Assembly: GCA_017412245.1 (NCBI GenBank)
Contig: JAFPYI010000023.1
Coordinates: forward strand, 12,288-76,287
DNA: 64,000 nt
Direction: 5' to 3'
From: Paludibacteraceae bacterium
GTDB lineage: Bacteria > Bacteroidota > Bacteroidia > Bacteroidales > Paludibacteraceae
Within the stretch, counting starts at the first letter, position 1. Every line of letters begins with the position of its first letter. The notes below the pieces were generated by a model that was not told where the DNA came from, ran no database searches, and was given only the letters and a program-made list of their open reading frames with translations. Position numbers and translations under genes: made by a program. This document shows positions 3,885 through 50,059 of this stretch, one piece after another.

Positions 3885-6338
3885 TTATCTCAAATCAATT
3901 GTTACTTTTAAATTATATCTCCGGCCGGTCAAATAATTCGGACTTGCCCATTGAAGATTATTTGCGTCAGCTACCCAAAAATAAGAGTTCACGTTCTTCC
4001 AACCTACAAGATTGAACACTTCAAACTGAATAGCCCATTGTTTCACATGTTTTGCACTCTCGGCGCGCATAAACTTTGCAGTCTTCTCGTTGAATGTATA
4101 GGTCGCTCCTATGTCGATACGTTTGTAAGTCGGCATACGACCCCATGATTGATTATTACGCGGCGCATAGAACGGTTGTCCCTCTGAGAATTGCATCTTC
4201 AAATGGAACTTCAACTGTGGCAATTGAGGTATATAGTCTTGGAACAACATCGAGAACGAATAGCGTTGTTCTTGAGGACTTGGAATCCATGCACTATTTC
4301 CTAATAACCGCTGTCGTGCAGTCATCGTTGAGAAAGAGATCCAACTATCTGCACCCGGCACCAGTTCTCCATACAGTTTCAAATCCAATCCGGCGGCATA
4401 ACCTTCCGAATCATTCACACCCGAATAACGCACACGCACATTGTCCACGCTGTAACTCTCCATCCGGTCGATATACTTGTAGTACGCCTCGGCCGTAAAC
4501 TTAAATGGTCTTCCCCATGCGCGGAAATAGTAGTCTCCACCCAATACAACATGCACGGAACGTTGTGCCTTGAGCGATTCATTCAAATCGATACGCGTGA
4601 TGCCATACTCATCCGTAATGGTGTCACGCAATTCTTTGTAGAATGGCGCTTGATAATAAAGTCCTGTCGCCAAACGGAAACAGAAATCACGTTTCCATCC
4701 GGGAATCCATTCTACGCTTGCACGAGGCGAAGGAAGCACTTCATTATTCCAACTCCACCATTGCAAACGACCGCCTACTGTCAATATCCATTGTCCCGAA
4801 CGAGTATTCCATTTATGCTGGTTTTGAATGTACGCTTGCACACGCGCAGAGCGAATCGTCGTATCGCCACGCATGGAATAATACAACTCCATGGATTTCT
4901 CGGTATTCGGAAGCGAATAACCGGCAGAATCGCGCCATTCCCATTCATTAATATGGTCTGCTATCAGTTCTGCCTGACCACTCACACCCCATGTAAGACT
5001 ATTCTGCCCGCGAGTCCATTCTCCGTTATGCGCCAATGTCACAACACCGGCTTGCAGACTGTTACGCGAGTGTTGATGAAAAACACCTATACCTAAAACG
5101 GAAGATTGACCTTCGGACGGATCTACCAATTCCGTATGCACATTACCAGCCGACTCACCATCCATAGACGCATTACTCAGCACATATTCACCCGTTATAT
5201 CGAAATTCTCACGCTCATTGGTATAAAAACCACTCACGTCAAAACCGATTTGCACCTCACGACTCACTTTGCCCTTAGCACTTAATGCCGCAAAAGCAGT
5301 CAAAAAACGGTCTTTCTCTTGGCCTTCGTAGTAGATATTCAGTCGTTTGGCATTTTGACCGCCAAAACTCTCACTCAAACTGTCCGGTTGGAAACGATAA
5401 TCATTCTGACTGACGTTTCCTAAAAATGACATTTGCCATGCAGGACCGGTTTTCCATGTAATAAAGGTCTGGTAATCAAAATAATTCGGTTGATAATTGC
5501 CGCTTGTAGCAAGTGCACCAAGCATATATCTGCTCGTCTTATAGCGAAAACCATGCATCATACTGTACGTACTGTCGCCATGGCCCACATATACTTGAGC
5601 GCCTAACAAACTGGCACTTAATGTCGCTTCAAATTTATCCGGACGCTTATAGGTTATATCCAAAACCGAAGACATCTTATCGCCATATTGTGCGCCATAA
5701 CCGCCGGCAGAAAAACTCACGTTCTCCACCATCTCCGGATTGACGAAACTCAATCCTTCCTGCTGACCGCTACGGATTAGCAACGGACGATGTACTTCTA
5801 TTCCGTTCACATAAACTTCATTCTCGTCAAACGAACCGCCGCGCACATTATATTGACTACTCAATTCATTCGTCTGACTCACTCCGGCAAAAGTAATCAG
5901 CAGACTCTCAATAGAACCGCCTGTGGCATCAGGCATCACGCGAGTAGCTTCTGCGTCAATTCTATCCATCGTACCTTGTGTGTGCTTGATTCCACGAACT
6001 TCAATCTCCGTCAGCAATTGTTCATCCGTCAGCAATTGCACATTCACATTAAGCACATCGCGCAAGTCGATAATTCGCTGCTGAACGCTCGTATAACCTA
6101 TCATCGAGAACGAAAGCACTACTGTATCGGACTCTTCTAACAGCAACTCATAATAACCGTTTTTGTTGGTACTCGTTCCTATCGGTTTATCTGCATTCAG
6201 CACAACCACGTTTGCCAATTCTATTCCGATATTATCTTGGTCTACCACATACCCATACACGCGTGCGTTGCGCGCGTACAAAGAAGCACACAAAAAAAGC
6301 AGCAACAAAAAGTTTACTATTTTTAAGATTTTGCTCAT
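3885..6338 (-). CDS. TonB-dependent outer-membrane receptor with N-terminal carboxypeptidase-regulatory-like domain
   Basis: 817 aa. Signal peptide, then the pattern YGYVVD...GIELANVVV...TNKNGYYEL typical of the CarboxypepD_reg fold. A plug-like region (GGSIESLL...[20 protein letters not shown]) follows, then a long barrel ending in an aromatic-rich C-terminus. Confidence 0.82.
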
Positions 6339-6345
6339 TTATAGG

Positions 6346-6404
6346 GTGAACGAAACTTTATCGGGGTTTGAACGTGGTTTGAACGTAGTTTAAACCTGGT
6401 TAAC
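6346..6404 (+). repeat. divergent copy (F) of the 11-bp-phased repeat element, in the leader/promoter region of the TonB-dependent receptor gene
   Basis: GTGAACG-aaacttTATCGgG followed by ggtttgaacgt / ggtttgaacgt / agtttaaacct / ggttaac. That is a left terminus resembling copies A and B, plus three and a half units of exactly 11 bp. The unit sequence differs from the TCGA consensus. Confidence 0.45.
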
Positions 6405-6427: not shown

Positions 6428-7066
6428 TTAAGATTTTCTGATTTCGGATGCTAAGTTTTGATTTATTTCTTCTATATACGCAATTAGTTCTTCTCCGCCC
6501 AAACGAGTCTCGGCAGAAGTAACAAAGACCGGTGGTAATTCTTCCCACTCTTCCAACAAACGGTTTTTATATGCCTCCACATTTTCCTTCAAACGAACTT
6601 TGCCTAATTTGTCACCTTTCGTAAACACTAAGGCAAAAGGCACACCATTCTCGCCCAACCAACTGATAAAATCCAAATCTATCTGCTGCGGTTCATGCCT
6701 GCAATCAATCAGCACAAACAAACACACCAATTGCTCACGCAGCAAACAATAGCGCTCTATCATCCGCCGTAATGCTTCTCGTTGTTTCTGACCCGCTTGC
6801 GCATAACCATAACCCGGCAAATCTACCAGATGCCATGTTTGACTGCCGACAGACGCCAATTCGCTTACAACTTCAAAATGATTGATTAGCAACGTCTTAC
6901 CGGGTTTTTGACTGGTCTTGGCTAATTTCGGATTACGGCACAGCATATTAATAAGGCTCGATTTACCAACATTACTGCGGCCAATAAACGCGTACTCCGG
7001 CAAACTGCTTTTCGGGCAACTTGCCACATCCGGATTGGAAATAATATATTGTGCGCTTTTAATCAT
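6428..7066 (-). CDS. engB: ribosome biogenesis GTP-binding protein EngB/YihA/YsxC
   Basis: 212 aa. G1 motif [12 protein letters not shown]. Motifs DLPGYGYA and TKGDK. The start overlaps the cstA stop by 4 nt. Confidence 0.92.
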
Positions 7067-10589: not shown

Positions 10590-11585
10590 ATGAAACAAAT
10601 ACAATTCTATACCATCCGCAGTAAAAGCGGACTGGTAGCTGAGATAAGCACTCTCGGAGCCAAAATAACCAAACTGATTGTTCCTAACGACAAAGGCGAG
10701 AAAAAAGATGTTGTTCTCGGGTTTAATACTGCAGAAGACTGGCAACAGAAAGAGACATACTTCAATGCCATTTGCGGACGAGTAGCTAATCGTATTAAGG
10801 ACGGCAAATTCAGCTTGGACGGGCGAAACTATCAGTTACCAATCAATAACGGCACAAACAGTTTGCACGGAGGAGTAGAAGGTTTTAATGCCAAATTATG
10901 GGATGTAACTGCACAAAGTCTCTTTGAGATAACACTTCATTACCGCGCTAAAGACGGTGAAGAAGGATATCCGGGCAATGTGGATATTTGGGTAACTTAT
11001 ACTGTCACCAAGGATAATTGTTTACGCATCCACTATGAGGCAAAAACAGACCAACCGACTTTGGTTGCCATGACTAACCATGCGTATTTCAATCTGGCAG
11101 GCGAAGATAGCGGTCGTGTGGATGAACATATTCTGCAGATTAATGCCGATTATTATACGCCTTTTGACGAAACAGCTTGTCCTACAGGCGAGATTTTGCC
11201 GGTAGACGGCACTCCTATGGACTGGAGAAAACCGGTACGAATTGGTGACAGAATTAACGATCCGTTTTTTGCTCCCGGAAGAGGAGTGGACAACAACTGG
11301 TGTTTATGCGAAGGCAATGCTCCAAAAGAATTGCGTCATGCAGCTACATTACAAGCTGACGGGCGAACAATGGAGTGTTGGACGACGATGAAAGGACTGC
11401 AAGTCTATACCGGCAATTGGGTAGAACAGAATATCGGCAAAGGCGGAAAGCTGTACGACATACAACACGCCGTTTGTTTAGAAGCGCAAAACTGGCCTGA
11501 TAGCATCAATCATGCCAACTTCCCGAACATTGTTCTTCGACCGGGTGAAAAACTTGACGAAACAACAGAATATCGGTTTGTATGA
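10590..11585 (+). CDS. galM: aldose 1-epimerase (galactose mutarotase)
   Basis: About 331 aa. Motifs NAICGRVANRIKDGKFSLDGRNYQL..NNG.NSLHGG and NHAYFNL. The track start 10584 is TTG; ATG 10590 (MKQIQF...) is preferred. The stop overlaps the next gene's ATG (ATGA). Confidence 0.9.
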   Translation: MKQIQFYTIRSKSGLVAEISTLGAKITKLIVPNDKGEKKDVVLGFNTAEDWQQKETYFNAICGRVANRIKDGKFSLDGRNYQLPINNGTNSLHGGVEGFNAKLWDVTAQSLFEITLHYRAKDGEEGYPGNVDIWVTYTVTKDNCLRIHYEAKTDQPTLVAMTNHAYFNLAGEDSGRVDEHILQINADYYTPFDETACPTGEILPVDGTPMDWRKPVRIGDRINDPFFAPGRGVDNNWCLCEGNAPKELRHAATLQADGRTMECWTTMKGLQVYTGNWVEQNIGKGGKLYDIQHAVCLEAQNWPDSINHANFPNIVLRPGEKLDETTEYRFV

Positions 11586-13981: not shown

Positions 13982-14080
13982 AGACATTCAAAAATCACGG
14001 GATAATATACCATGTATATTATAGGTATAAGCGGGATACGTTAAAACCAGGTAATACATAGGTAACGCATAGCAAACAAA

Positions 14081-14112
14081 TAGCTCGGGCATTTCACCCG
14101 AGCTATTTTTTG
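14081..14112. terminator. bidirectional rho-independent terminator between the convergent GH2 and CBM-protein genes
   Basis: Stem TAGCTCGGG (14081-14089), loop CATTTCA, stem CCCGAGCTA (14097-14105), followed by TTTTTT on the plus strand. An A-rich run precedes the hairpin, which gives a T-rich tail on the minus strand. Confidence 0.6.
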
Positions 14113-23098: not shown

Positions 23099-23274
23099 AG
23101 AAAATAAATATTTTTTTCATTTTTTTCGTTTTTTTTCTCAATTTTCGACATTTAGGGCATATTTCGAAAAAATTCCAGTGCAGAAATCAACAAGAAATTA
23201 GTCCAAAAAACAACGCATCGAAATGTTGTATATTTCCTCTATTTTCAGGCAGATTTTTAAGACAACGTTTTAAC

Positions 23275-23327
23275 CACGTAATTGGTTCGAGATTCGTTCA
23301 AGATTGTCTCGATATCGACTCGATCAC
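23275..23327 (-). repeat. copy E of the 11-bp-phased TCGA element (intergenic, decayed)
   Basis: The sense (minus) strand reads GTGATCGAGTCGATATCGAG-acaatcttgaa-cgaatctcgaa-ccaattacgtg. It has the same left terminus and the same last unit (ccaattacg) as copy B. One unit is mutated from TCGA to TTGA. Confidence 0.8.
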
Positions 23328-27413: not shown

Positions 27414-28586
27414 ATGGCAAATAACAAACTTACTTGGACCGAATTGCGCCGTCTGTTAGCTTCTCGCGCAGGAGTCAAAGAAAGCGAAGCCAATGCGTTC
27501 CTTTCCACACTTAATGAGCAACTCATAGAAGCACTCAAGAAAGATAAACAAGTGAAAATCAACGGATTGGGGACTTTCCGTCTGCAATCTGTTGCGCCAC
27601 GCCGTAGTGTAAGCGTCAGCTCAGGACAAGAAATGACGATAGAAGGATACAATAAAATTGTATTCACACCGGAATCCGGAGTAAAAGAACTTGTCATTAA
27701 TGCGCCTGTTGCGGCTAAAAATGCGGATGCAAACGAAGAAATCAATCCTTTGAAGAAATTGGGTGACCAAGCAGAGGAAATTGTTGATATTCTTGCAGAT
27801 TTAGGGCAAGCTCCGAAAACAGAGAAAGAACCGAAAGAAGAGAAACCTAAGAAAAAGATTGTTAAGAAAAAAGTGGTCGTTAAGCCGCAACCTGTGACAC
27901 CGGAACCGATTAAGATTGAAGAACCGGAGCCAGTCAAAGTCGAAGAGCCCGGACCCGTAAAAGCAGAAGAGCCAAAACCGGTAGAGATTGCGACTCCTGT
28001 TGAACCGGAGAAACCGGCAAAACCGGAACAACCTGAGAAACCGAAGAAAAAATATCATTTCTTGCGCGACACATTGATTTGTGTCATTTGCTTGCTGTTG
28101 TTATTACTTATCGGGTATTTCTTCCTGCGCAATCAGTTGACATCTTTAATCAATTCCATTGGCAAAGACAAACCCGTTCAAACCGAATTGGTTGAACCAA
28201 AGGCACAGCAAACGGACACGTTACCTGCCAATATCGAGGGAACTTCGAACCAATCTCGAACCTATTTCGAGTCTGATACCGTTCTGAAGGAAACAGAGAA
28301 GGAGACTCCAAAAGAAATCGTTTATGACAACCTGATTACTACTGAGCCCATGCATGAAGCAAGTCGTTTGACATGGATGGCAAAACGTTACTATGGCAGC
28401 AAAGATTATTGGCCGTATTTGTATGACGCGAACAAAGATCGTATAACTAACCCTAATAAAATTACTGTCGGCACGCCTATTCGTGTTCCAAAACTGACTG
28501 CAGAACAGATGGACACGACCATTGAGAGTTCGCGTCTGACACTTCATCGTTTGCGTGAAGAAGCAGAAGCAGCGTGCAAAAAATAA
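27414..28586 (+). CDS. HU-fold domain / Pro-Glu-Lys-rich linker / TM helix / LysM-like domain protein
   Basis: 390 aa. N-terminal HU-like domain (ELRRLLASRAGVKESEANAFLSTLNEQLIEALKKDKQVKINGLGTF). Linker with EEPxPVK repeats. One TM (LICVICLLLLLLIGYFFL). C-terminal LysM-like segment (RLTWMAKRYYGSKDYWPYLYDANKDRITNPNKITVGTPIRVP). Confidence 0.72.
   Translation: MANNKLTWTELRRLLASRAGVKESEANAFLSTLNEQLIEALKKDKQVKINGLGTFRLQSVAPRRSVSVSSGQEMTIEGYNKIVFTPESGVKELVINAPVAAKNADANEEINPLKKLGDQAEEIVDILADLGQAPKTEKEPKEEKPKKKIVKKKVVVKPQPVTPEPIKIEEPEPVKVEEPGPVKAEEPKPVEIATPVEPEKPAKPEQPEKPKKKYHFLRDTLICVICLLLLLLIGYFFLRNQLTSLINSIGKDKPVQTELVEPKAQQTDTLPANIEGTSNQSRTYFESDTVLKETEKETPKEIVYDNLITTEPMHEASRLTWMAKRYYGSKDYWPYLYDANKDRITNPNKITVGTPIRVPKLTAEQMDTTIESSRLTLHRLREEAEAACKK
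28228..28274 (+). repeat. copy C of the 11-bp-phased TCGA element, in frame inside the HU/LysM gene
   Basis: CCAATATCGAG-ggaacttcgaa-ccaatctcgaa-cctatttcgag-TCT. Four TCGA sites spaced 11 bp apart. It is translated as ..ANIEGTSNQSRTYFESD.. in the extracytoplasmic linker. Confidence 0.8.
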
Positions 28587-33267: not shown

Positions 33268-34349
33268 TACAATCTTTTTTCATACAACATGCATACCTTA
33301 TCGGTGTTGTCAGTTTTCTTTTAGGACTGATTGGTATGCCGATTGTCATTCGCATTGCGAAGGCCAAGGGTTTTGTCGTACGACCTAACAAACGCATGAG
33401 TCACGAAGGTGATATTCCGAATATCGGAGGACTGAATATTTGTTTCAGTTTCATGCTCACCTACTTGTTTTTCGAATTCAACCAAATGACTCAAAACCAA
33501 TTCTTCATCATTGGCTTTTTTGCTATCATGGCTGTTGGTTTTATTGATGATGTATTGGTTTTGACTCCAACGGCAAAATTGTTTGGCGAAACATTGGCAG
33601 GATTGGCGTTGATTGGGTTTGCAGATATGCGAATCACGCATTTGCATGGCATTTTCGGCATTAATGAATTAGGAATTATTCCCAGTTATATCATCTCGCT
33701 ATTTGTACTCATTGCTATCATTAACGCCATTAACCTGATTGACGGAATAGATGGTCTTGCCAGTGGATTAGGAATTCTCTATTGCTTGTTTTTCGCTATC
33801 TATTTCGGCTTGGTGCAAGAACGCAATTGGGCGATTCTTGCTATTTGTATGATTGGTTCATTAGCGGTATTCTTTATCTATAATGTCTTTGGCAGACGGG
33901 AAAAAATCTTTATGGGAGATTCCGGAAGTTTGTTGCTTGGATATCTGCTTACTGCTTTTGTCTTCCATTTTTGTGAGATTAACGCATACCACCAAGTGCC
34001 GGAGATTTTCCACATGAATGCTGCGCCTGCTGTTGCTATTTGTGTGTTGACTGTTCCTATCTTTGATACAATTCGTGTCAGCCTCACACGTATCAAACAA
34101 CATCGTTCGCCATTCCAACCGGATAAAAACCACATTCACCATCTGCTTTTGCGCACAGGACTCAATCATATTCAAACCACGTGCGTTTTGCTGTCTATTA
34201 GTTTACTGTTTATTGGTTGGGCAATATTAGGAAGGAATTGGAACATTTGGTTACTATTGATAACAGATTTTGCTATTGCCACAGGATTGACTTTAATCCT
34301 TTGGCGTGTCATCAATCACAAACTCTACGGTACGAATGCTAAGCATTGA
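33264..34349 (+). CDS. MraY/WecA family polyprenyl-phosphate N-acetylhexosamine-1-phosphate transferase
   Basis: 361 aa polytopic protein. Motifs GFIDDV, NAINLIDGIDGLA, MGDSGSLLLGY and FQPDKNHIHH. 4-nt overlap with the upstream gene. Confidence 0.88.
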   Translation: MIQSFFIQHAYLIGVVSFLLGLIGMPIVIRIAKAKGFVVRPNKRMSHEGDIPNIGGLNICFSFMLTYLFFEFNQMTQNQFFIIGFFAIMAVGFIDDVLVLTPTAKLFGETLAGLALIGFADMRITHLHGIFGINELGIIPSYIISLFVLIAIINAINLIDGIDGLASGLGILYCLFFAIYFGLVQERNWAILAICMIGSLAVFFIYNVFGRREKIFMGDSGSLLLGYLLTAFVFHFCEINAYHQVPEIFHMNAAPAVAICVLTVPIFDTIRVSLTRIKQHRSPFQPDKNHIHHLLLRTGLNHIQTTCVLLSISLLFIGWAILGRNWNIWLLLITDFAIATGLTLILWRVINHKLYGTNAKH

Positions 34350-36150
34350 ACATCTCACAATGGAATTTGCGTCGCGGCCCGTCCTCGATGACATCACTTT
34401 CCTTATTAATCGCAAAGAGAAAATTGCGTTAGTAGGAAAGAATGGTGCGGGCAAGACAACTCTTATGCGTTTGATTGCAGGAGAATATACGCCTACTGCC
34501 GGACGCATCAGTCGTGAGACGGATATGACTATTGGGTATCTGCCGCAAGTAATGTTGCATCAAGACGGTCGCACTCTGCGCGAAGAAGTGATGACGGTTT
34601 TTGCACACATTCCGGAGGAAGAACAAGCACGACATATAGCTGAGATGGATAGAACCATCATTGGTTTAGGATTCGAACGAAAAGATTTTGAAAGACCTTG
34701 CAGCGCATTCTCCGGCGGCTGGAGAATGCGTATCGAATTAGCAAAAATTCTCTTACGCCATCCGGATTTATTACTGTTAGACGAACCAACAAACCATCTC
34801 GACATTGAGTCTATCCAATGGTTGGAGGATTTTCTCAAAACGAGCCAAAGTGCTGTTCTTATCGTGAGTCACGACCGCGCATTTATCGATAATGTCTGCA
34901 ACCGAACCATTGAAATCACACTCGGACGCATCTATGATTACAACGTCAACTATAGTCATTTCGTAGAACTGCGCAAAGAACGTCACGAACAGCAAGTACG
35001 AGCGTACATGAATCAGCAAAAGATGATTCAAGAAACCGAAGAATTTATCGAACGATTCAGATACAAAGCGACAAAAGCCGTACAAGTACAAAGCCGCATT
35101 AAACAATTGGAAAAATTAGAAAGGCTCGAAGTGGATTTGGAAGATACCAGTCGTTTGAATCTACGGTTTCCACCTGCACCACGAAGTGGCGATTTTCCGC
35201 TTATATTGGAAGACGTACGAAAAGATTTCGGCGAGCATAATGTCTTTCATGACGTCACTTTCACGATTCGCCGTGGAGAGAAAGTAGCGTTTGTCGGCAA
35301 AAACGGAGAAGGAAAAACCACGCTTGTCAAATGCATCATGGGACAATTGGATTATTTGGGGAATCTGAAAATCGGGCATAATGTCAAGATTGGTTATTTT
35401 GCGCAAAACCAAGCAGCTTTGTTAGACGAAAATCTCACAGTTTTTGAGACAATTGATTATGTTGCTGTTGGAGATATTCGCACCAAAATTCGCGACATAT
35501 TAGGTGCATTCATGTTTGGTGGGGAAGCGAGCGACAAGAAAGTGAAAGTCCTTTCCGGTGGAGAAAGAAGTCGTTTGGCGATGATTCGATTGTTGCTCGA
35601 ACCTTGTAATCTATTGATTCTGGACGAGCCGACAAACCATTTGGATATGCAGTCGAAAGATGTGCTAAAAGAAGCATTAAAAGATTTCAACGGCACTTTG
35701 ATTTGCGTGAGTCATGATAGAGATTTTCTCAATGGTTTGGTAAGCAAAGTTTATGAATTTGGCGGAGGACGTGTGAAAGAACATCTTGGTGGCATTTATG
35801 ATTTCTTGCGGGCCAAAAAGATTGATAATTTGCAAGAGTTGGAACGCAAAGTTCCCACAAAGAGTGAACGGGTCGATATCGAGTCAATCTCGAGCCAATC
35901 TCGAACCAATCTCGAGTCTAAACTGGATTATGCGGCACAAAAAGCAGAAGCCGCAGCACGACGAAAAAAGGAGAAACAAATTGCAGAGACTGAGGCTGCT
36001 ATCGCGGAATTGGAAGCACAACAAGCAGAAATAGAACAACTGCTTGCTTCTCAGGAAAATCAAACAGCAGAATTGTTCCAGAAATACGAATCGGTCAAAC
36101 ACTCTATTGAGCAAAAACTATACGAGTGGGAAATACTTAGTGAAAACTGA
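34336..36150 (+). CDS. ABC-F family ATPase (translation-associated, no TM domain)
   Basis: About 604 aa from ATG 34336 (MLSIEHLTMEF...). Two ABC cassettes (GKNGAGKTTL / LSGGWRMRIELA...LLLLDEPTNHLD; GKNGEGKTTL / LSGGERSRLAM...LLILDEPTNHLD) joined by the ABC-F linker. C-terminal coiled coil. Confidence 0.92.
   Translation: MLSIEHLTMEFASRPVLDDITFLINRKEKIALVGKNGAGKTTLMRLIAGEYTPTAGRISRETDMTIGYLPQVMLHQDGRTLREEVMTVFAHIPEEEQARHIAEMDRTIIGLGFERKDFERPCSAFSGGWRMRIELAKILLRHPDLLLLDEPTNHLDIESIQWLEDFLKTSQSAVLIVSHDRAFIDNVCNRTIEITLGRIYDYNVNYSHFVELRKERHEQQVRAYMNQQKMIQETEEFIERFRYKATKAVQVQSRIKQLEKLERLEVDLEDTSRLNLRFPPAPRSGDFPLILEDVRKDFGEHNVFHDVTFTIRRGEKVAFVGKNGEGKTTLVKCIMGQLDYLGNLKIGHNVKIGYFAQNQAALLDENLTVFETIDYVAVGDIRTKIRDILGAFMFGGEASDKKVKVLSGGERSRLAMIRLLLEPCNLLILDEPTNHLDMQSKDVLKEALKDFNGTLICVSHDRDFLNGLVSKVYEFGGGRVKEHLGGIYDFLRAKKIDNLQELERKVPTKSERVDIESISSQSRTNLESKLDYAAQKAEAAARRKKEKQIAETEAAIAELEAQQAEIEQLLASQENQTAELFQKYESVKHSIEQKLYEWEILSEN
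35864..35919 (+). repeat. copy A of the 11-bp-phased TCGA element, in frame inside the ABC-F gene
   Basis: GTGAACGGGTCGATATCGAG-tcaatctcgag-ccaatctcgaa-ccaatctcgag-TCT. Five TCGA sites. It is translated as ..SERVDIESISSQSRTNLESK.. between the second ABC cassette and the C-terminal coiled coil. Confidence 0.85.
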
Positions 36151-39167: not shown

Positions 39168-41282
39168 ATGAAACATTCGCTTTCACTTCTCACACTTTTG
39201 TTGTGTGTAACATTGGTAAATGCCACCACATTCTACGCTTCTCCTTCCGGAAACGGGAATGGTAATTCATATACATCACCTACCAGTTTCAGTAATGGTG
39301 TGTCCAAATTATCCTCTCCGGGCGACACTTTGTATATATTAGGAGGAACTTATGAATTTACTGATAAATTTAGTATCAACAAACAAGGTTCCGCTTCCAA
39401 ACGCATCGTAATTTCCGGTTTCCCGGGAGAGAAAGCCATTTTGGACTTTCACAAAGTAGCATATGGAGTAAGAGGCATTACCATTCATGAGAATTCGCTT
39501 TATATACATATCAAAAATCTCTCCATTGCTTACTCCGGGAAAAATAATCTATACTGCGAAGGTTCGTATTGTCTCTTTGAGAATCTGGATATCTATGGGT
39601 CGGCAGATACTGGTTGTCAGATGAAGAAAGGCGGTAATAATACCATTCTGAATGTGGACAGCCATGATAATTTCGACTATAAAACCATGTCCGGCACACA
39701 AGCCAATTTCGGCGGAAATGCAGATGGTTTTGCAGACAAACAATTTACCGGAGCCGGAAACCATTATATCGGTTGTCGTGCATGGGGAAATAGCGATGAC
39801 GGATGGGATTTCTATGATCGAAAGAGCAGTAGCCAAACAATTATAGAAAACTGTATCTGCTACCAAAACGGTCCTGCTACCTATAACATGAAAAATCATC
39901 CTCGTTATGAGGTAGATAAAACATGGTTCGACAGCAAAGTGGGCACAACGATGACTGACCGTTATGGTAATACAATTACCATCACACTGGAACAATATCC
40001 ATGTCAAGGCAATGGAAATGGTTTCAAGATGGGAGGAAACTATTCTGACCACCAGATTCTTATCCATCATTGTTTGTCGGTAGCCAATAACAAACGCGGT
40101 TTTGACCAAAACAATAATGGTGGTACGATGTGGGTGTATAACAACACGGCATATGACAATGGTCCTAATTATGGTTTTACGACCAGTTATGGAACTAACA
40201 CCATTCAAAATTGCATCAGTTATAAAAGCAAGAGTTCTGATAGTTATCGTTCTAAAAATGTGGCAGTTATTGACCATAACTCGTGGAATGGTTTTACTCT
40301 TTCCAACAGCGATTTTGTATCATTAGACACCACACAGATTTTGGCAGCTCGTCAATTAGACGGAAGTCTTCCGGAAAGTACTTGTTTGCATTTAGCAAGC
40401 GGTTCATCTCTAATCGATGCAGGTGTGGATATCAATCTTGGTTATAACGGCAACGCTCCGGATTTGGGATGCTATGAAACAGATGGAGAACACCACGACC
40501 CGATTGATGATGATACCATTCCTGATATTCAACCGGAAGGAAGTCATCGTGTAGCATTTGTGACTACTCTCAATGCTCCGGCCGACAAAGCATTATTAGC
40601 ACATTTGAAAACAAATGATTCTTTGTATGTAGTTCAAACTGAAGCCATAGATGCAGATGTGGACTATAGCGATTACGAAGTGATTGTTTTAGGAAGCGTT
40701 CCTAATAGTGGAGCTGCAGGATTTGCAGCGCTAAAAGGTTATAACAAGCCAATGCTGATGCTCAAACCATTCTTACTCAAAAATACTGTTTGGGATTGGG
40801 GTTCTGCCGTTAACACAACTGATTTAAGTGTAAAAGTAGTTAATGCCAATCATCCTATATTTCAACATTTAACCATTACGGATGGTGAGTTACAATTATT
40901 CAGTAAATGCACAACCAATGCTGTAACAGCCATCAGTACTTGGACGAATACTACGGGTTTTGAATTATTAGGTACTCCTGTTTCTCAAGAGACATACACA
41001 ACTATTGCTGATTTTGCGCCCGAAACGAATTGTAACGGAACCATTCTTCCGCAACGATTAGTTATGATTGGCGTGAGCGAATATTCAACGGCAGACTTAA
41101 CTTACGACGGCAAACGTCTCATAGAGAATGCCATTTGCTATTTGTTGGGAATTCCTATGCCTACAGCCATTGAGCAAACTAATATTAATCCGAAATCATC
41201 TGCAACCAAATTTATACACAATGGACACATTTACATTCGCGTTGGTACGCAAATTTTTGATTGTACCGGTCGTTCTTTGTAG
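39168..41282 (+). CDS. secreted right-handed parallel beta-helix protein (pectate-lyase-like, PL9-type motifs) with extra C-terminal domain and short sorting-like tail
   Basis: 704 aa with a signal peptide. Beta-helix motifs NADGFADK, AWGNSDDGWDFY and GNGNGFKMGGN. After about residue 440 there is an unrelated alpha/beta-looking domain. It ends ..ATKFIHNGHIYIRVGTQIFDCTGRSL. Confidence 0.6.
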   Translation: MKHSLSLLTLLLCVTLVNATTFYASPSGNGNGNSYTSPTSFSNGVSKLSSPGDTLYILGGTYEFTDKFSINKQGSASKRIVISGFPGEKAILDFHKVAYGVRGITIHENSLYIHIKNLSIAYSGKNNLYCEGSYCLFENLDIYGSADTGCQMKKGGNNTILNVDSHDNFDYKTMSGTQANFGGNADGFADKQFTGAGNHYIGCRAWGNSDDGWDFYDRKSSSQTIIENCICYQNGPATYNMKNHPRYEVDKTWFDSKVGTTMTDRYGNTITITLEQYPCQGNGNGFKMGGNYSDHQILIHHCLSVANNKRGFDQNNNGGTMWVYNNTAYDNGPNYGFTTSYGTNTIQNCISYKSKSSDSYRSKNVAVIDHNSWNGFTLSNSDFVSLDTTQILAARQLDGSLPESTCLHLASGSSLIDAGVDINLGYNGNAPDLGCYETDGEHHDPIDDDTIPDIQPEGSHRVAFVTTLNAPADKALLAHLKTNDSLYVVQTEAIDADVDYSDYEVIVLGSVPNSGAAGFAALKGYNKPMLMLKPFLLKNTVWDWGSAVNTTDLSVKVVNANHPIFQHLTITDGELQLFSKCTTNAVTAISTWTNTTGFELLGTPVSQETYTTIADFAPETNCNGTILPQRLVMIGVSEYSTADLTYDGKRLIENAICYLLGIPMPTAIEQTNINPKSSATKFIHNGHIYIRVGTQIFDCTGRSL

Positions 41283-43014: not shown

Positions 43015-43050
43015 CAAAACCACGTGTAAAGTCTAGGATAACCCCGATGC

Positions 43051-43114
43051 AGACTCGAAAATGACTCGTAAACGGCTCGAGATTGGTTCGAAATTGACTC
43101 GAGAACGATTCGAG
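43051..43114 (-). repeat. copy D of the 11-bp-phased TCGA element (convergent intergenic, expanded to 5-6 units)
   Basis: The plus strand reads aga-ctcgaaaatga-ctcgtaaacgg-ctcgagattgg-ttcgaaattga-ctcgagaacga-ttcgag, in perfectly kept 11-bp phase. The sense strand ends ..TTTTCGAG-TCT like copies A and C. It starts 7 nt after the stop of the metallophosphoesterase gene. Confidence 0.8.
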
Positions 43115-43121
43115 TGATGAG

Positions 43122-44012
43122 TTATGGCTGTTGCGGATAATCAATATAATGGTAGACAATGCTTTCCGACATGTCTGCAATCATATAGGATTGACCTTTT
43201 TCGCTATCTTTTGTTGCGTTAAGAACGAGGTACTGCACTCCTTTGAAAATAACTGATTGGCGTGCATGTTGATGGCCGCTCCAAACGAATTCTACGCCGT
43301 ATTTTGACAGTAACGACGTCAGTTCGTAAGTTGCTTCCAACGCGTAATTGCTGGTATGTCCTTGCGATGCATCCAGTTTCCACAAGTGCGTGTGCGTGAA
43401 GACAATAATGTGTCGATAGCCTTCTTTCGATTTCTCTTCCAAAAGCGTCTTCAACCAATTGGTTTGATCAACACCTAAATCTCCTTCCGCGCTATCCAAA
43501 CAAATAAAAAGGTCTAATTTCTTAGAGCCATTATTGGTGTCAAACCAATAAACCGAAGTCTTGAAATAATCACGATAAATAGGCCATTGCTTGAAATAGA
43601 TATCATGGTTTCCGGGCGTAATAAACAAAGTGTCATCAATAGCCCTTTCGCCTAATCGCAACACACTATCGGCACAAGGAAAATTCTTTTGCGCATCAAT
43701 CAAATCGCCCAAATGCAATGCCAATTTCGGACTGGAAGCGTTCTCATATTGATTGACAAAATAGGCAAGATTACGATGGCTGGTTCGTGTTATATGGCTG
43801 TCCGTGCAGACATAAATAGCATAGTCATCTTGCGCCATGTCCAGATGAATTTCGGACCGTGACTCATTATATAACATCGACTGAGCGAAACGCGCTTTAA
43901 TCGTCTCTCCTTGCGGAGAAAACATACCTGCGATATCCAAAGTGCTGTCTTCACTACATGCTGAGAACAGCAAAGAAACCAAAAATATATACGAAATTTT
44001 CTTCATAATCAT
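43122..44012 (-). CDS. metallophosphoesterase lipoprotein (calcineurin-like)
   Basis: 296 aa. Lipobox LLFSAC. Phosphoesterase motifs CTDSH, LGDLID, GNHD, FTHTH and SGHQH. The start could also be ATG 44006. Confidence 0.88.
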   Translation of the reverse strand: MIMKKISYIFLVSLLFSACSEDSTLDIAGMFSPQGETIKARFAQSMLYNESRSEIHLDMAQDDYAIYVCTDSHITRTSHRNLAYFVNQYENASSPKLALHLGDLIDAQKNFPCADSVLRLGERAIDDTLFITPGNHDIYFKQWPIYRDYFKTSVYWFDTNNGSKKLDLFICLDSAEGDLGVDQTNWLKTLLEEKSKEGYRHIIVFTHTHLWKLDASQGHTSNYALEATYELTSLLSKYGVEFVWSGHQHARQSVIFKGVQYLVLNATKDSEKGQSYMIADMSESIVYHYIDYPQQP

Positions 44013-49008: not shown

Positions 49009-50059
49009 GGCACTAATCAGCAATCGTAAATTTTATATTGCAGGTTCCTGTAGCGCCGAATCGCGCGAACAGGTCTTACTCACCGCACGCTTAATTCAAC
49101 AAGCAGGCGGTGAGTTGCCGATTATTTTTCGCGCAGGCGTGTGGAAACCGAGAACCAGTCCAAACACGTTCCAAGGCGCCGGAGAGCAAGCATTGGCATG
49201 GCTTCAAGAAGTTAAAAAGACATTCGGAATGGAGATAGCTACAGAAGTGGCGACTCCCGAACATGTTCAAAAAGCACTTGATGCATGCATTGACTATCTC
49301 TGGTTAGGAGCAAGAACGACAGCGAATCCTATTGCTGTGCAAGAATTGGCGGATGCTATTGTTGCCCATTCCCATAAACCAAAAGCAATTCTCGTCAAAA
49401 ATCCTGTGCATAACGATCCTGAGTTATGGATAGGCGATTTGGAACGTTTGGAAGCGAAAGGCTTGTCTGTTATTGCCGTGCATCGCGGATGTAATCACAA
49501 ACCTTGTTGGGCAATGGCGCATCATTTGCGAGAAAAAAGACCGGACATCCCATTGCTTATCGATCCGAGTCATATGAGCGGAAATGCGCAATACATCTCC
49601 GCATTGCTTGCGAAAGCGGCAGAACTGCAATACGATGGTTCGATGATTGAAGTGCATCCGTGTCCGGGAAACGCACTTTCTGACTCCAAACAGCAGATTA
49701 CGCCTGACCAATACAAACAAATTGTGAACGGGTCAATATCGAGCCAATCTCGAACCAATCTCGAACCAATTACGAGAGATAAGGCTGAACAGAAAGACAA
49801 CTCTACTCTACTCTGGTTACGCGCAGAAATTGACGAGTTGGACGACCAACTATGGCAAACGATTGCAGACCGGATGAAAGTCAGTCAACGTATCGGAGAA
49901 TGGAAAAAAGCCAATCATATTGCTCCACTCCAACCACAGCGATATGCACAGATTTTAGCAGAAAGATTGCAATGGGCGGAACAAAACGGACTTTCTCAGG
50001 AACTCATTCAGCATATTTTTGATGCCATTCACAAGGAGAGCCTCAAAAAGCAAGAATAA
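49001..50059 (+). CDS. bifunctional 3-deoxy-7-phosphoheptulonate (DAHP) synthase type I-beta / chorismate mutase (AroQ); start codon unresolved
   Basis: Maximal open frame. DAHP synthase motifs FYIAGSCSAES, IFRAGVWKPRTSP..FQG, LGARTT and IDPSH. C-terminal AroQ helix pattern LLWLRAEIDELDDQLWQTIADRMKVSQRIGEWK. The first canonical start (TTG 49115) lies downstream of the conserved N-terminal motif. Confidence 0.88.
   Translation, partial: FIKALISNRKFYIAGSCSAESREQVLLTARLIQQAGGELPIIFRAGVWKPRTSPNTFQGAGEQALAWLQEVKKTFGMEIATEVATPEHVQKALDACIDYLWLGARTTANPIAVQELADAIVAHSHKPKAILVKNPVHNDPELWIGDLERLEAKGLSVIAVHRGCNHKPCWAMAHHLREKRPDIPLLIDPSHMSGNAQYISALLAKAAELQYDGSMIEVHPCPGNALSDSKQQITPDQYKQIVNGSISSQSRTNLEPITRDKAEQKDNSTLLWLRAEIDELDDQLWQTIADRMKVSQRIGEWKKANHIAPLQPQRYAQILAERLQWAEQNGLSQELIQHIFDAIHKESLKKQE
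49724..49776 (+). repeat. copy B of the 11-bp-phased TCGA element, in frame at the DAHP synthase / chorismate mutase junction
   Basis: GTGAACGGGTCAATATCGAG-ccaatctcgaa-ccaatctcgaa-ccaattacgag. It is translated as ..IVNGSISSQSRTNLEPITRD.. in the interdomain linker. Confidence 0.85.

Follow-up and report, generated by a model that had tools for sequence, protein, structure and literature searches.

A mostly five-unit module of 11-bp-phased direct repeats, dispersed between and within genes of a Paludibacteraceae genome and bearing signs of concerted evolution

The window, the whole 64-kb stretch of DNA that was analysed, belongs to an uncultured gut or rumen Bacteroidales bacterium. Across 74 kb (the 64-kb window and a 10-kb extension), a short array of 11-bp units recurs at a density of about 1 per 10 kb. 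Its members, with extents set by phase alignment, are as follows.

Copy A, 35864-35922, plus strand: GTGA and five units, ACGGGTCGATA TCGAGTCAATC TCGAGCCAATC TCGAACCAATC TCGAGTCTAAA (HMM E=5e-18); in frame within an ABC-F gene (ORF 34306-36150), where it separates the second ABC domain from the C-terminal one.
Copy B, 49724-49782, plus strand: canonical full module, GTGA and ACGGGTCAATA TCGAGCCAATC TCGAACCAATC TCGAACCAATT ACGAGAGATAA (HMM E=6e-18); in frame within the inter-domain linker of a DAHP synthase-chorismate mutase (ORF 49115-50059).
Copy C, 28223-28277, plus strand: five units lacking GTGA, ACCTGCCAATA TCGAGGGAACT TCGAACCAATC TCGAACCTATT TCGAGTCTGAT (HMM E=3e-13); in frame within the disordered linker of an HU-domain/TM protein (ORF 27414-28586).
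Copy D, 43037-43113, minus strand: seven units in a convergent intergenic gap, beginning 8 nt past the stop codon of a metallophosphoesterase gene (43122-44012, minus strand).
Copy E, 23269-23327, minus strand: GTGA and five units, TCGAGTCGATA TCGAGACAATC TTGAACGAATC TCGAACCAATT ACGTGGTTAAA (HMM E=1e-14); between divergent genes, 134 bp ahead of the start (23141) of a same-strand MFS gene.
Copy F, 6346-6404, plus strand: divergent, GTGA and five units of an ACGTGG subtype, ACGAAACTTTA TCGGGGTTTGA ACGTGGTTTGA ACGTAGTTTAA ACCTGGTTAAC; intergenic, antisense to both neighbours (3885-6338 and 6428-7066, both minus strand).
Copy G, 0.9 kb beyond the window: canonical and of the same length as B; intergenic, 126 bp upstream of a same-strand gene.

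Six of these places had been recognised in the first-pass annotation, whose coordinates fall slightly short at the ends, the phase-aligned extents being somewhat longer. Its expectation of further copies is met by G and by members in other Paludibacteraceae assemblies. Copies E and B share 89% identity along 53 nt. Both BLAST and the element HMM miss copy F, so that its membership rests on cap, phase and five-unit length; the GTGA and five phased units agree with its earlier description as a divergent copy.

The repeat family is real and lies far above chance expectation. A two-unit 20-mer, allowing up to 3 mismatches, matches the window 10 times against an expectation of 0.01, and every match falls inside copies A-E. 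Period-11 arrays are called by TRF at all six places (A-F). Spacings between TCGA tetranucleotides in the window peak at 11 bp (n=15), 22 bp (n=9) and 33 bp (n=5), no other spacing exceeding 3 occurrences. At an 11-bp phase the window's CG dinucleotides line up into 5 chains with 4 or more units each, and the lags of 7-10, 12 and 14 give no chain of that length. The 20-mer scan, TRF calls and spacing peaks together bear out the original description of a family of 11-bp-phased TCGA units. Recovery of identical copies in independent assemblies rules out an assembly artefact.

Phase alignment resolves the module into a GTGA cap followed by five 11-bp units, each beginning NCG, for a total of 59 bp; copies span 55-77 bp, with a mode of 59 bp. 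GTGA followed by exactly five units is found in A, B, E, F and G and at the ABC-F site of L043. Both the first unit (ACGGGTCRATA) and the last (ACGAGAGATAA or TCGAGTCTAAA) are conserved and distinct from the core units. The array is for the most part fixed at five units and bears distinct caps; it is not the free tandem of 3-6 units that had been proposed. The 20-nt left terminus reported with it is exact in A and B and present with 2 mismatches in E, and is absent from C and D. Because the units are 11 bp long, one NCGAR-N-CAAT motif is presented per helical turn.

The module contains no inverted repeats or stem-loop. Its ends (GTGAACGGG... and ...CGAGAGATAA) share a loose GAGWKAAC motif and are not mutual inverted copies. 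Predicted folds of A-E are no better than those of shuffled sequence (z-scores +0.34 to -2.38), leading to rejection of RNA structure as the basis of the element, and a search of Rfam matched no family. RPEs and bacterial MITEs are approximately 100-200 bp long, with terminal inverted repeats and long stem-loops (PMC2229807). The present module is like them in being a small dispersed repeat that is found in intergenic DNA and also fused in frame in conserved genes, the ORF running through; it differs in its 59-bp length, its five direct 11-bp units and its lack of TIRs or a significant fold. Of the analogy with RPEs drawn earlier, in-frame tolerance is thus retained and the palindromic, TIR-bounded structure is not.

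Copies A, B and C each fall between Pfam domains of the host protein. The host assignments to ABC-F, DAHP synthase/chorismate mutase and HU are confirmed, and the LysM domain also assigned to the HU protein is undetected by Pfam. All three copies support the claim of in-frame tolerance in conserved genes. The core encodes the same hydrophilic 11-mer in all three forward frames, and the peptide contributed by copy A is ERVDIESISSQSRTNLESK. The unit had been considered stop-free in six frames, which holds for CCAATCTCGAR taken by itself and fails for TCAATCTCGAR, where the reverse strand reads TGA. Since TGA arises from the GTGA cap, too, in one forward frame, and TAA from the ...GATAA end, no real copy is open in every frame on both strands.

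The peptides, and the difference in frame between A and B at the left terminus, are as first described. Because identical bases are read in different frames, the family exists at the level of nucleotides and not of protein, as had been suggested. A conserved linker motif (QSR...N..E) under amino-acid selection, with likeness at the DNA level as its by-product, would account for the similar peptide S-x-Q-S-R-x-N-L-E in three proteins. That explanation is effectively refuted by the shared terminus being read in different frames, by the four to five copies that are non-coding, by the variation of linker peptides among close orthologues, and by codons (CAA, CGA) that are fixed while synonymous sites elsewhere are saturated. 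An old protein motif is likewise not what occupies these sites, where orthologues bear different peptides, and the 78 distinct linker variants among ABC-F proteins at least 85% identical speak for an absence of constraint on the protein.

Orientation bears on a further possibility, that the array works at the level of the transcript, perhaps as a Rho site or as a target of an RNA-binding protein. Genic copies are all in the sense direction, in five independent genes (ABC-F, DAHPS-CM, HU-TM, the L010/L014 gene and the L020 gene), and D, E and G lie on the same strand as an adjacent gene, as an RNA-level element would predict. The genic bias is explained, however, by the stops and the W/F-rich peptides of the reverse strand. 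Copy F is antisense to its neighbours, L012 carries a long array of 10 units lying antisense to the following gene, and neither predicted structure nor an Rfam match is in evidence, making a transcript-level role very improbable.

Several of the sites are also occupied in relatives. Phased arrays are present at the ABC-F linker site in L017, L042, L043 and L044, and at the DAHPS-CM linker site in L046, L053 and L057. These arrays carry the unit type of their own genome, and the synonymous sites of these relatives are saturated; the reading of simple in-frame insertion is thus only partly right, and A and B are not recent clean insertions. Sites C and D are occupied solely in the window and in the G17 clade (G17, GCA_016286205.1), which points to lineage-specific gain, and L057 has an ordinary terminator at the position of D. 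Comparison for clean presence/absence indels, as suggested at first pass, yields no clean empty allele among the relatives, the linkers at site C being too diverged, and no target-site duplication was found at the copies examined. Copy density varies several-fold among syntenic genomes.

Comparison of array sequences points clearly to concerted evolution, in which arrays are alike within a genome and unlike their orthologues in other genomes. Local alignment of the window genome's copies with one another scores 28-43 for pairs drawn from A, B, D and E and 23-31 where C is one of the pair; the corresponding range within G17 is 13-32, and orthologous array pairs reach just 8-20. At each of the four sites that allow the comparison, an array is more similar to its paralogues than to its orthologues, and the ABC-F and DAHPS-CM arrays of G17 share an identical tract of 28 nt.

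Alignment of near-identical strains further indicates that copies are open to overwriting. L047 matches the window at 98.9% identity, and copy D alone has been rewritten: the D region carries 34 differences per 500 bp, against 0-4 in its flanks, and the array has 7 units in the window and 6 in L047. The window allele is complete in L050 and L052 and also present in the truncated contig L051, and the alternative allele is known from the single assembly L047; L047 and L050 stem from ruminant samples (SAMN158xxxxx and SAMN188xxxxx). An imported recombination tract is excluded as the source of the difference by the identity of the flanks. A DGR-like mechanism is excluded as well, the allelic differences being mixed transitions and transversions at all bases with no A-bias; the window contains no reverse transcriptase. 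Unit number is constant at A, B and C across 5-8 conspecific variants, and stability within genes, with only intergenic D differing, excludes phase variation or a contingency VNTR. Activity is low, since A, B and C differ only by point changes among conspecific strains.

The pattern of change over longer distances is informative about constraint. Fourfold sites of the ABC-F orthologues have reached saturation, at 31-40% identity. Even so, nine lineage groups retain TCGAGCCAATC as the core consensus, in which positions 2, 3, 7 and 10 never vary and positions 1, 5 and 6 do; several of the copies from other genomes in this comparison carry an ascertainment bias, having been found by scanning with the window's own unit, and the unbiased set is the five syntenic lineages. 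TCGA is exchanged for ACGAG, TCGG or ACGTG in other lineages or copies, leaving the phased CG alone invariant; the earlier idea of TCGA methylation is weakened accordingly, and has been dropped as a unifying feature. To judge from these alignments, lineages with saturated neutral sites still share the conserved family consensus and its caps. Neutral drift with gene conversion appears insufficient because the TCGAGCCAATC core is held across lineages, and from this conservation we infer that the module is recognised by a protein.

These observations weigh on the interpretation of the family as a passive minisatellite, that is, an old tandem repeat seeded at several sites and homogenised by slippage and RecA-dependent ectopic conversion, with no dedicated factor or function. 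Such an origin would fit the tandem 11-bp structure, the within-genome similarity with mosaic tracts of identity, the 10-unit L012 array and the one-unit difference between D alleles, as well as the absence of an associated gene from the searched region. Free slippage is not expected, though, to give a fixed five units with distinct conserved caps, or to leave unit number invariant at A, B and C among conspecific strains. Conversion does not slow the divergence of a consensus, yet this one has been held while fourfold sites saturated, and copies of 55-60 bp at ~90% identity are poor substrates for RecA. A passive origin is accordingly considered unlikely. Among known tandem repeats, the cyanobacterial STRR units are 7 bp and the mycobacterial MIRU units 46-101 bp, with copy numbers that vary between strains, and MIRUs keep reading frames open over operon junctions. 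The present arrays resemble both in consisting of short tandem units scattered over many chromosomal loci, and differ in being mostly fixed at five units, in their distinct caps and in a period of one helical turn.

A second possibility is that the five-turn array serves the cell as a platform for a DNA-binding protein that oligomerises head to tail, such as a regulator, a nucleoid protein or a factor reading an uptake or segregation signal, so that use maintains the copies and the units co-evolve with the protein. PHO boxes, bound by regulators of the OmpR/PhoB family, are composed of direct repeat units of 11 nt (PMC7866108). The module shares with them a format of several head-to-tail 11-bp direct repeats, and its conserved core with variable positions 1, 5 and 6 resembles a binding logo. 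The persistence of sites A and B through deep divergence and the placement of E and G upstream of same-strand genes are also consistent with a host function. PHO boxes, however, mark the promoters of a regulon; they are neither scattered through ORF linkers nor subject to concerted evolution as a copied family. With regard to operator-like location, E and G precede genes, A, B and C are inside ORFs, and D follows a stop codon; with F and the L012 array antisense, and with copies in linkers of unrelated housekeeping proteins, no common promoter geometry emerges. Relatives differ in whether sites C and D hold a copy, with a terminator at D in L057, and syntenic genomes differ several-fold in copy density. 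That several copies share the same changes at variable positions implies copying, not independent selection. On balance, a platform maintained for cellular use seems rather improbable.

The reading preferred here, tentatively and at somewhat less than an even chance, is that of a non-autonomous copy-and-paste module policed by a putative sequence-specific factor, akin to REP/RAYT systems in logic and not in structure. The modules would be cis-sites for a trans-acting protein encoded elsewhere in the genome, which may make one contact per turn of the helix, all on the same face of the DNA. By mobilising the module or through break-induced ectopic conversion, this putative protein would carry out or trigger copy-and-paste from site to site, and the family would thereby behave as a non-autonomous replicator. 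The copies are scattered over positions tolerant of extra DNA, in inter-domain linkers and intergenic gaps. Genic copies could persist because the core gives the same hydrophilic 11-mer in each of its three forward frames, all of them open, so that selection would purge only harmful insertions.

REP elements are imperfect palindromes that are extragenic and form inverted pairs. As REPs and REPINs, they are genome-specific, occur in many alike copies and are long-lived at orthologous positions, with a consensus presumably held by one trans-acting protein. The module is similarly short, putatively non-autonomous, genome-specific in sequence and homogeneous within a genome; it differs in having no palindrome and in its presence inside ORFs, and no RAYT (IS200/IS605-like TnpA) gene is found within the 64-kb window or the 10-kb extension. 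Uptake sequences offer another precedent: the USS and DUS of Pasteurellaceae and Neisseriaceae have cores of 9-12 bp at ~1 per kb and are subject to molecular drive via a sequence-specific protein. Species-specific dialects and many dispersed copies, including some in tolerant parts of ORFs, are common to these signals and the module, from which they are distinguished by its 59-bp, five-unit form and its density of ~1 per 10 kb.

Searches for partners and relatives of the module covered genes, other replicons, proteins and the literature. Transposase, reverse transcriptase, recombinase and nuclease genes were found neither in the window nor adjoining any copy examined. BLAST against plasmids and phages gave no match, and the exact-pattern scan of viral contigs gave 0. 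A peptide search with the synthetic array translation returned nothing, and the copy B peptide had a single match among 1.84 billion protein representatives, to an irrelevant repetitive protein. A scan for sigma-70 promoters and terminators was uninformative, sigma-70 being the wrong promoter type for Bacteroidota. The literature, searched for the module sequence or an equivalent element, held nothing relevant. Exact-pattern scans, of collections from which the window's own genome is absent, recovered 16 loci in GTDB genomes and 24 in JGI metagenomes, of which only ~10 are from Bacteroidales; the matches are mostly unrelated tandem repeats of Vibrio or cyanobacteria, or chance. Sphingobacterium L007 has phased arrays of similar form, possibly homologous.

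A wider and more doubtful proposal is that Paludibacteraceae, possibly with other Bacteroidota, harbour an undescribed homogenising system in which a sequence-specific protein bound over five successive helical turns drives copy-and-paste or overwriting at dozens to hundreds of sites, including some in essential genes. If it exists, such a system would be a new REPIN-like class of within-genome replicator, in which phased direct repeats stand in for hairpins. To our knowledge, nearly every small dispersed repeat yet described from bacteria is a palindrome (REP, MITE, RPE, Correia). A module that lacks a palindrome, is phased to the helix, keeps a fixed length and evolves in concert, with a consensus outliving neutral divergence, would imply a different mechanism of recognition and propagation, and with it a new protein partner in a phylum prominent in gut and rumen. 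The module also illustrates a route by which housekeeping enzymes gain and retain hypervariable linker peptides. The lineage-specific indels and apparent hypervariable spots that it makes in core genes call for caution in MAG phylogeny and strain typing.

DNA with an 11-bp period is present at all six places named in the first-pass annotation, and a lag-autocorrelation scan identifies 11 as the sole strongly enriched period in the window. The two-unit probe CAATCTCGARCCAATCTCGA, allowing ≤3 mismatches, gives 10 matches, every one in copies A–E of the repeat module, compared with 0.01 in shuffles. Spacings between TCGA tetranucleotides peak at 11 bp (15 pairs), 22 bp (9), and 33 bp (5), with ≤3 pairs at all others. 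Chains of ≥4 CG dinucleotides at exact 11-bp phase occur five times (copies A, B, C, D, and F), with none at lags of 7–10, 12, or 14 in the same scan of the window. Alignment of all copies on the phased CG, used to define their anatomy, places the true ends a few bases further out than had been reported.

Copy A, 35864..35922, plus strand: ABC-F gene (ORF 34306-36150), between the second ABC domain and the C-terminal domain
Copy B, 49724..49782, plus strand: DAHPS-CM gene (ORF 49115-50059), between the DAHP-synthase and chorismate-mutase domains
Copy C, 28223..28277, plus strand: HU-domain protein gene (ORF 27414-28586), disordered stretch past the membrane helix
Copy D, 43037..43113, minus strand: convergent gap, starting 8 nt downstream of a stop codon
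Copy E, 23269..23327, minus strand: divergent gap
Copy F, 6346..6404, plus strand: between two minus-strand genes
Copy G, 0.9 kb outside the window: intergenic, 126 bp upstream of a same-strand gene

The domain placement of A, B, and C agrees with the host genes proposed from the sequence; the ABC-F protein is MBQ3673365.1, from a Paludibacteraceae MAG. Copy G, with two canonical ends and the length of B, was found in a 10-kb extension past the window's left end, and the copies are dispersed over 74 kb at a density of ~1 per 10 kb. No additional hidden members were detected in the window by a profile HMM of the copies; gene content there is housekeeping only, and no transposase, reverse transcriptase, or recombinase gene is present. 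The HU-domain protein additionally carries coding 9-bp and 24-bp tandem repeats (27821-28049, a PEP/KPE-rich spacer) upstream of its membrane helix, which differ in length between orthologues.

The architecture of the module is discrete. A typical member consists of (TT/GA)GTGA followed by five 11-mers, each with an NCG start, for a total of 59 bp. The first unit is ACGGGTCRATA, core units are TCGARYCAATC, and the last is one of a few cap types: ACGAGAGATAA (B, G, the ABC-F sites of relatives L043 and G17, and loci L010, L012, L014, L020, and L034), TCGAGTCTAAA-like (A, C, D, and relative L044), or ACGTGGTTAAA or ACCTGGTTAAC (E and F). Unit number is exactly five in A, B, E, F, and G, five without the GTGA cap in C, and seven in D. 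The 20-nt left terminus initially ascribed to every copy is present in A, B, and, with 2 mismatches, E, but in no other. Freedom from stops in all six frames is a property of the CCAATCTCGAR unit alone; stops come in with the TCAAT variant, with the GTGA cap, and with the GATAA end. No inverted repeat was found in the module, its single-strand folds are no better than those of shuffles (z-scores +0.3 to -2.4), and an Rfam search gave no match. All genic copies, in five independent genes, lie in sense and are tolerated in frame. Of the copies between genes, one (G) is sense and two (F and L012) are antisense, with D and E ambiguous. Stops in the reverse strand, and the peptides rich in tryptophan and phenylalanine that it encodes, account for the genic bias, so no RNA-level role is needed, and an RNA element is very improbable.

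Related arrays occur in other ruminant and gut Bacteroidales contigs: directly past a signal peptide (L010 and L014, one gene), within an open reading frame (L020), and as a 10-unit intergenic array (L012). These loci come from a scan with the window's own unit, and the set is therefore biased towards it. ABC-F orthologues of 85–92% identity have a linker hypervariable in length and sequence (78 distinct variants). In the DNA of five syntenic relatives, this site contains an array of window type (L044), GTGA plus ACGAGACAAAG ACGAGACTTTA TCGAGACAATC ACGAGAGATAA (L017, GCA_016286205.1, here G17), a five-unit module colinear with copy B rather than copy A (L043), CGGTCCAAT units (L042), or no clear 11-bp array (L045). 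In the last, CG is phased at 9 bp (11483-11563, CCGGTAATC CCGAGAAAT CCGTAGATT CCGG), as though units had been cut down to whole codons. The DAHPS-CM linker also bears arrays in G17, L057 (65% protein identity), and L053 (60%). Because both linkers are occupied in relatives, neither A nor B is a recent clean insertion. Arrays at sites C and D are limited to the clade of the window and G17, indicating occasional gain of new sites; L057 has an ordinary terminator hairpin at the D site. The best relatives of the DAHPS-CM protein itself are just 61–65% identical, even in a genome with a 92%-identical ABC-F, and the gene is thus much faster-evolving or replaced. Gene callers place its start differently (276 vs 314 aa); its match to Pfam DAHP_synth_1 begins at profile position 51.

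The copies evolve in concert. Local alignment scores are higher for within-genome pairs (28–43 among A, B, D, and E; 23–31 for pairs with C; 13–32 for all pairs in G17) than for orthologous pairs between the window and G17 (8–20). Identity in the window is 94% between A and B (over 47 nt) and 89% between B and E (over 53 nt); in G17, the ABC-F and DAHPS-CM arrays have an identical 28-nt tract, ACGAGACTTTATCGAGACAATCACGAGA, in common. Cap type at the ABC-F site varies by lineage: the window and L044 have the A-type cap, L043 and G17 the B-type, which suggests that one family member was overwritten by another.

The family consensus is conserved past neutral expectation. Fourfold-degenerate ABC-F sites are saturated between the window and L017, L042, L043, and L044 (31–40% identity), a distance at which an unconstrained linker should be randomised, and the phased array is retained in every one of these relatives. 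The core consensus is nearly uniform, TCGAGCCAATC, with positions 2, 3, 7, and 10 invariant and 1, 5, and 6 variable in nine lineage groups, and the same cap units are found, unaltered, at other sites in other genomes. Selection on a protein motif is effectively excluded, as one and the same sequence is read in more than one frame, several copies are non-coding, and the linker peptides vary freely. Gene conversion alone would homogenise copies without halting drift of the consensus, and we infer a sequence-specific trans-acting factor that limits what a working copy looks like. Conservation of this kind could also reflect a binding platform for a host function, in the format of the PHO box (PMC7866108), though we consider this unlikely.

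Strain-level replacement is visible among conspecific assemblies ~99% identical to the window. Copy A is identical in these and C has a one-base change; B and C show a few amino-acid substitutions and constant unit number. At D, L047 has another sequence, one unit shorter, in place of ~66 bp of array, between flanks that hardly differ (34 differences in the array's 500-bp bin vs 0–4 nearby). The window allele is complete in L050 and L052 and also seen in truncated contig L051; the alternative is a single sighting. The differences carry no mutational signature and no adenine bias. A passive minisatellite, for which the tandem units and the one-unit length difference at D might speak, is a doubtful account of a module with fixed unit number and caps. 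Elsewhere, strains that are otherwise 99% identical diverge strongly over 39196-40916, within the ORF of a Pel9A-like beta-helix protein (39168-41282), with as many as 174 differences in 500 bp; this part of the gene resembles a surface- or glycan-related segment that is recombined or diversifying.

The best-supported reading, held tentatively, is a non-autonomous copy-and-paste DNA module. A putative protein would recognise it at every helical turn for five turns, mobilisation or provoked ectopic conversion would maintain within-genome likeness, and selection would filter modules to linkers and intergenic DNA. The module belongs among the small dispersed bacterial repeats. Like RPEs and other ORF-tolerated MITEs, it is tolerated in frame, but it has none of the TIRs, stem-loops, and 100–200 bp size that define those elements (PMC2229807). 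The logic of REP/REPIN-RAYT systems is alike, whereas their palindromes are absent here; STRR and MIRU are likewise dispersed short tandem units, with fixed unit number and caps the module's own. No description of the element was found in the searchable literature, and the possibility that a new mechanism lies behind it is a real one.

Other phased arrays were also noted. At 14038-14092 of the window, a convergent intergenic gap holds AGGTAAYRCAT x3, whose reverse strand ends CCTGGTTTTAACGT, similar to the right ends of E and F; this array escapes the element HMM and may be a decayed family member. Intergenic 11-bp arrays with other units in related genomes (L029 ~280-330, TACGTGTCGTT x4; L057 925-970, TCGGnnGTAAG x5; L044 21205-21275, CCRTAGGATCA x4; L045 16716-16793, TCAGCATATAT x3 plus AACCAGGTGGA x2) suggest that 11-bp phasing is a wider habit of these genomes. 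Several adjoining phased arrays in one intergenic region of Sphingobacterium haloxyli (L007 1500-1800; CTTCGGGnnnn x4-5, CGAACCAATCT x3, and 10-bp AAGTCCnnnn x4) may represent the same phenomenon in another Bacteroidota class or a coincidence of the pattern scan. In six Vibrio loci (L001, L002, L006, L008, L015, and L018), a TCAATCTCGAA tandem array of 2–6 units lies directly past a terminator-like hairpin, apparently at one orthologous site; this is a variable-number repeat with a unit sequence shared by chance. Several cyanobacterial matches resemble them.
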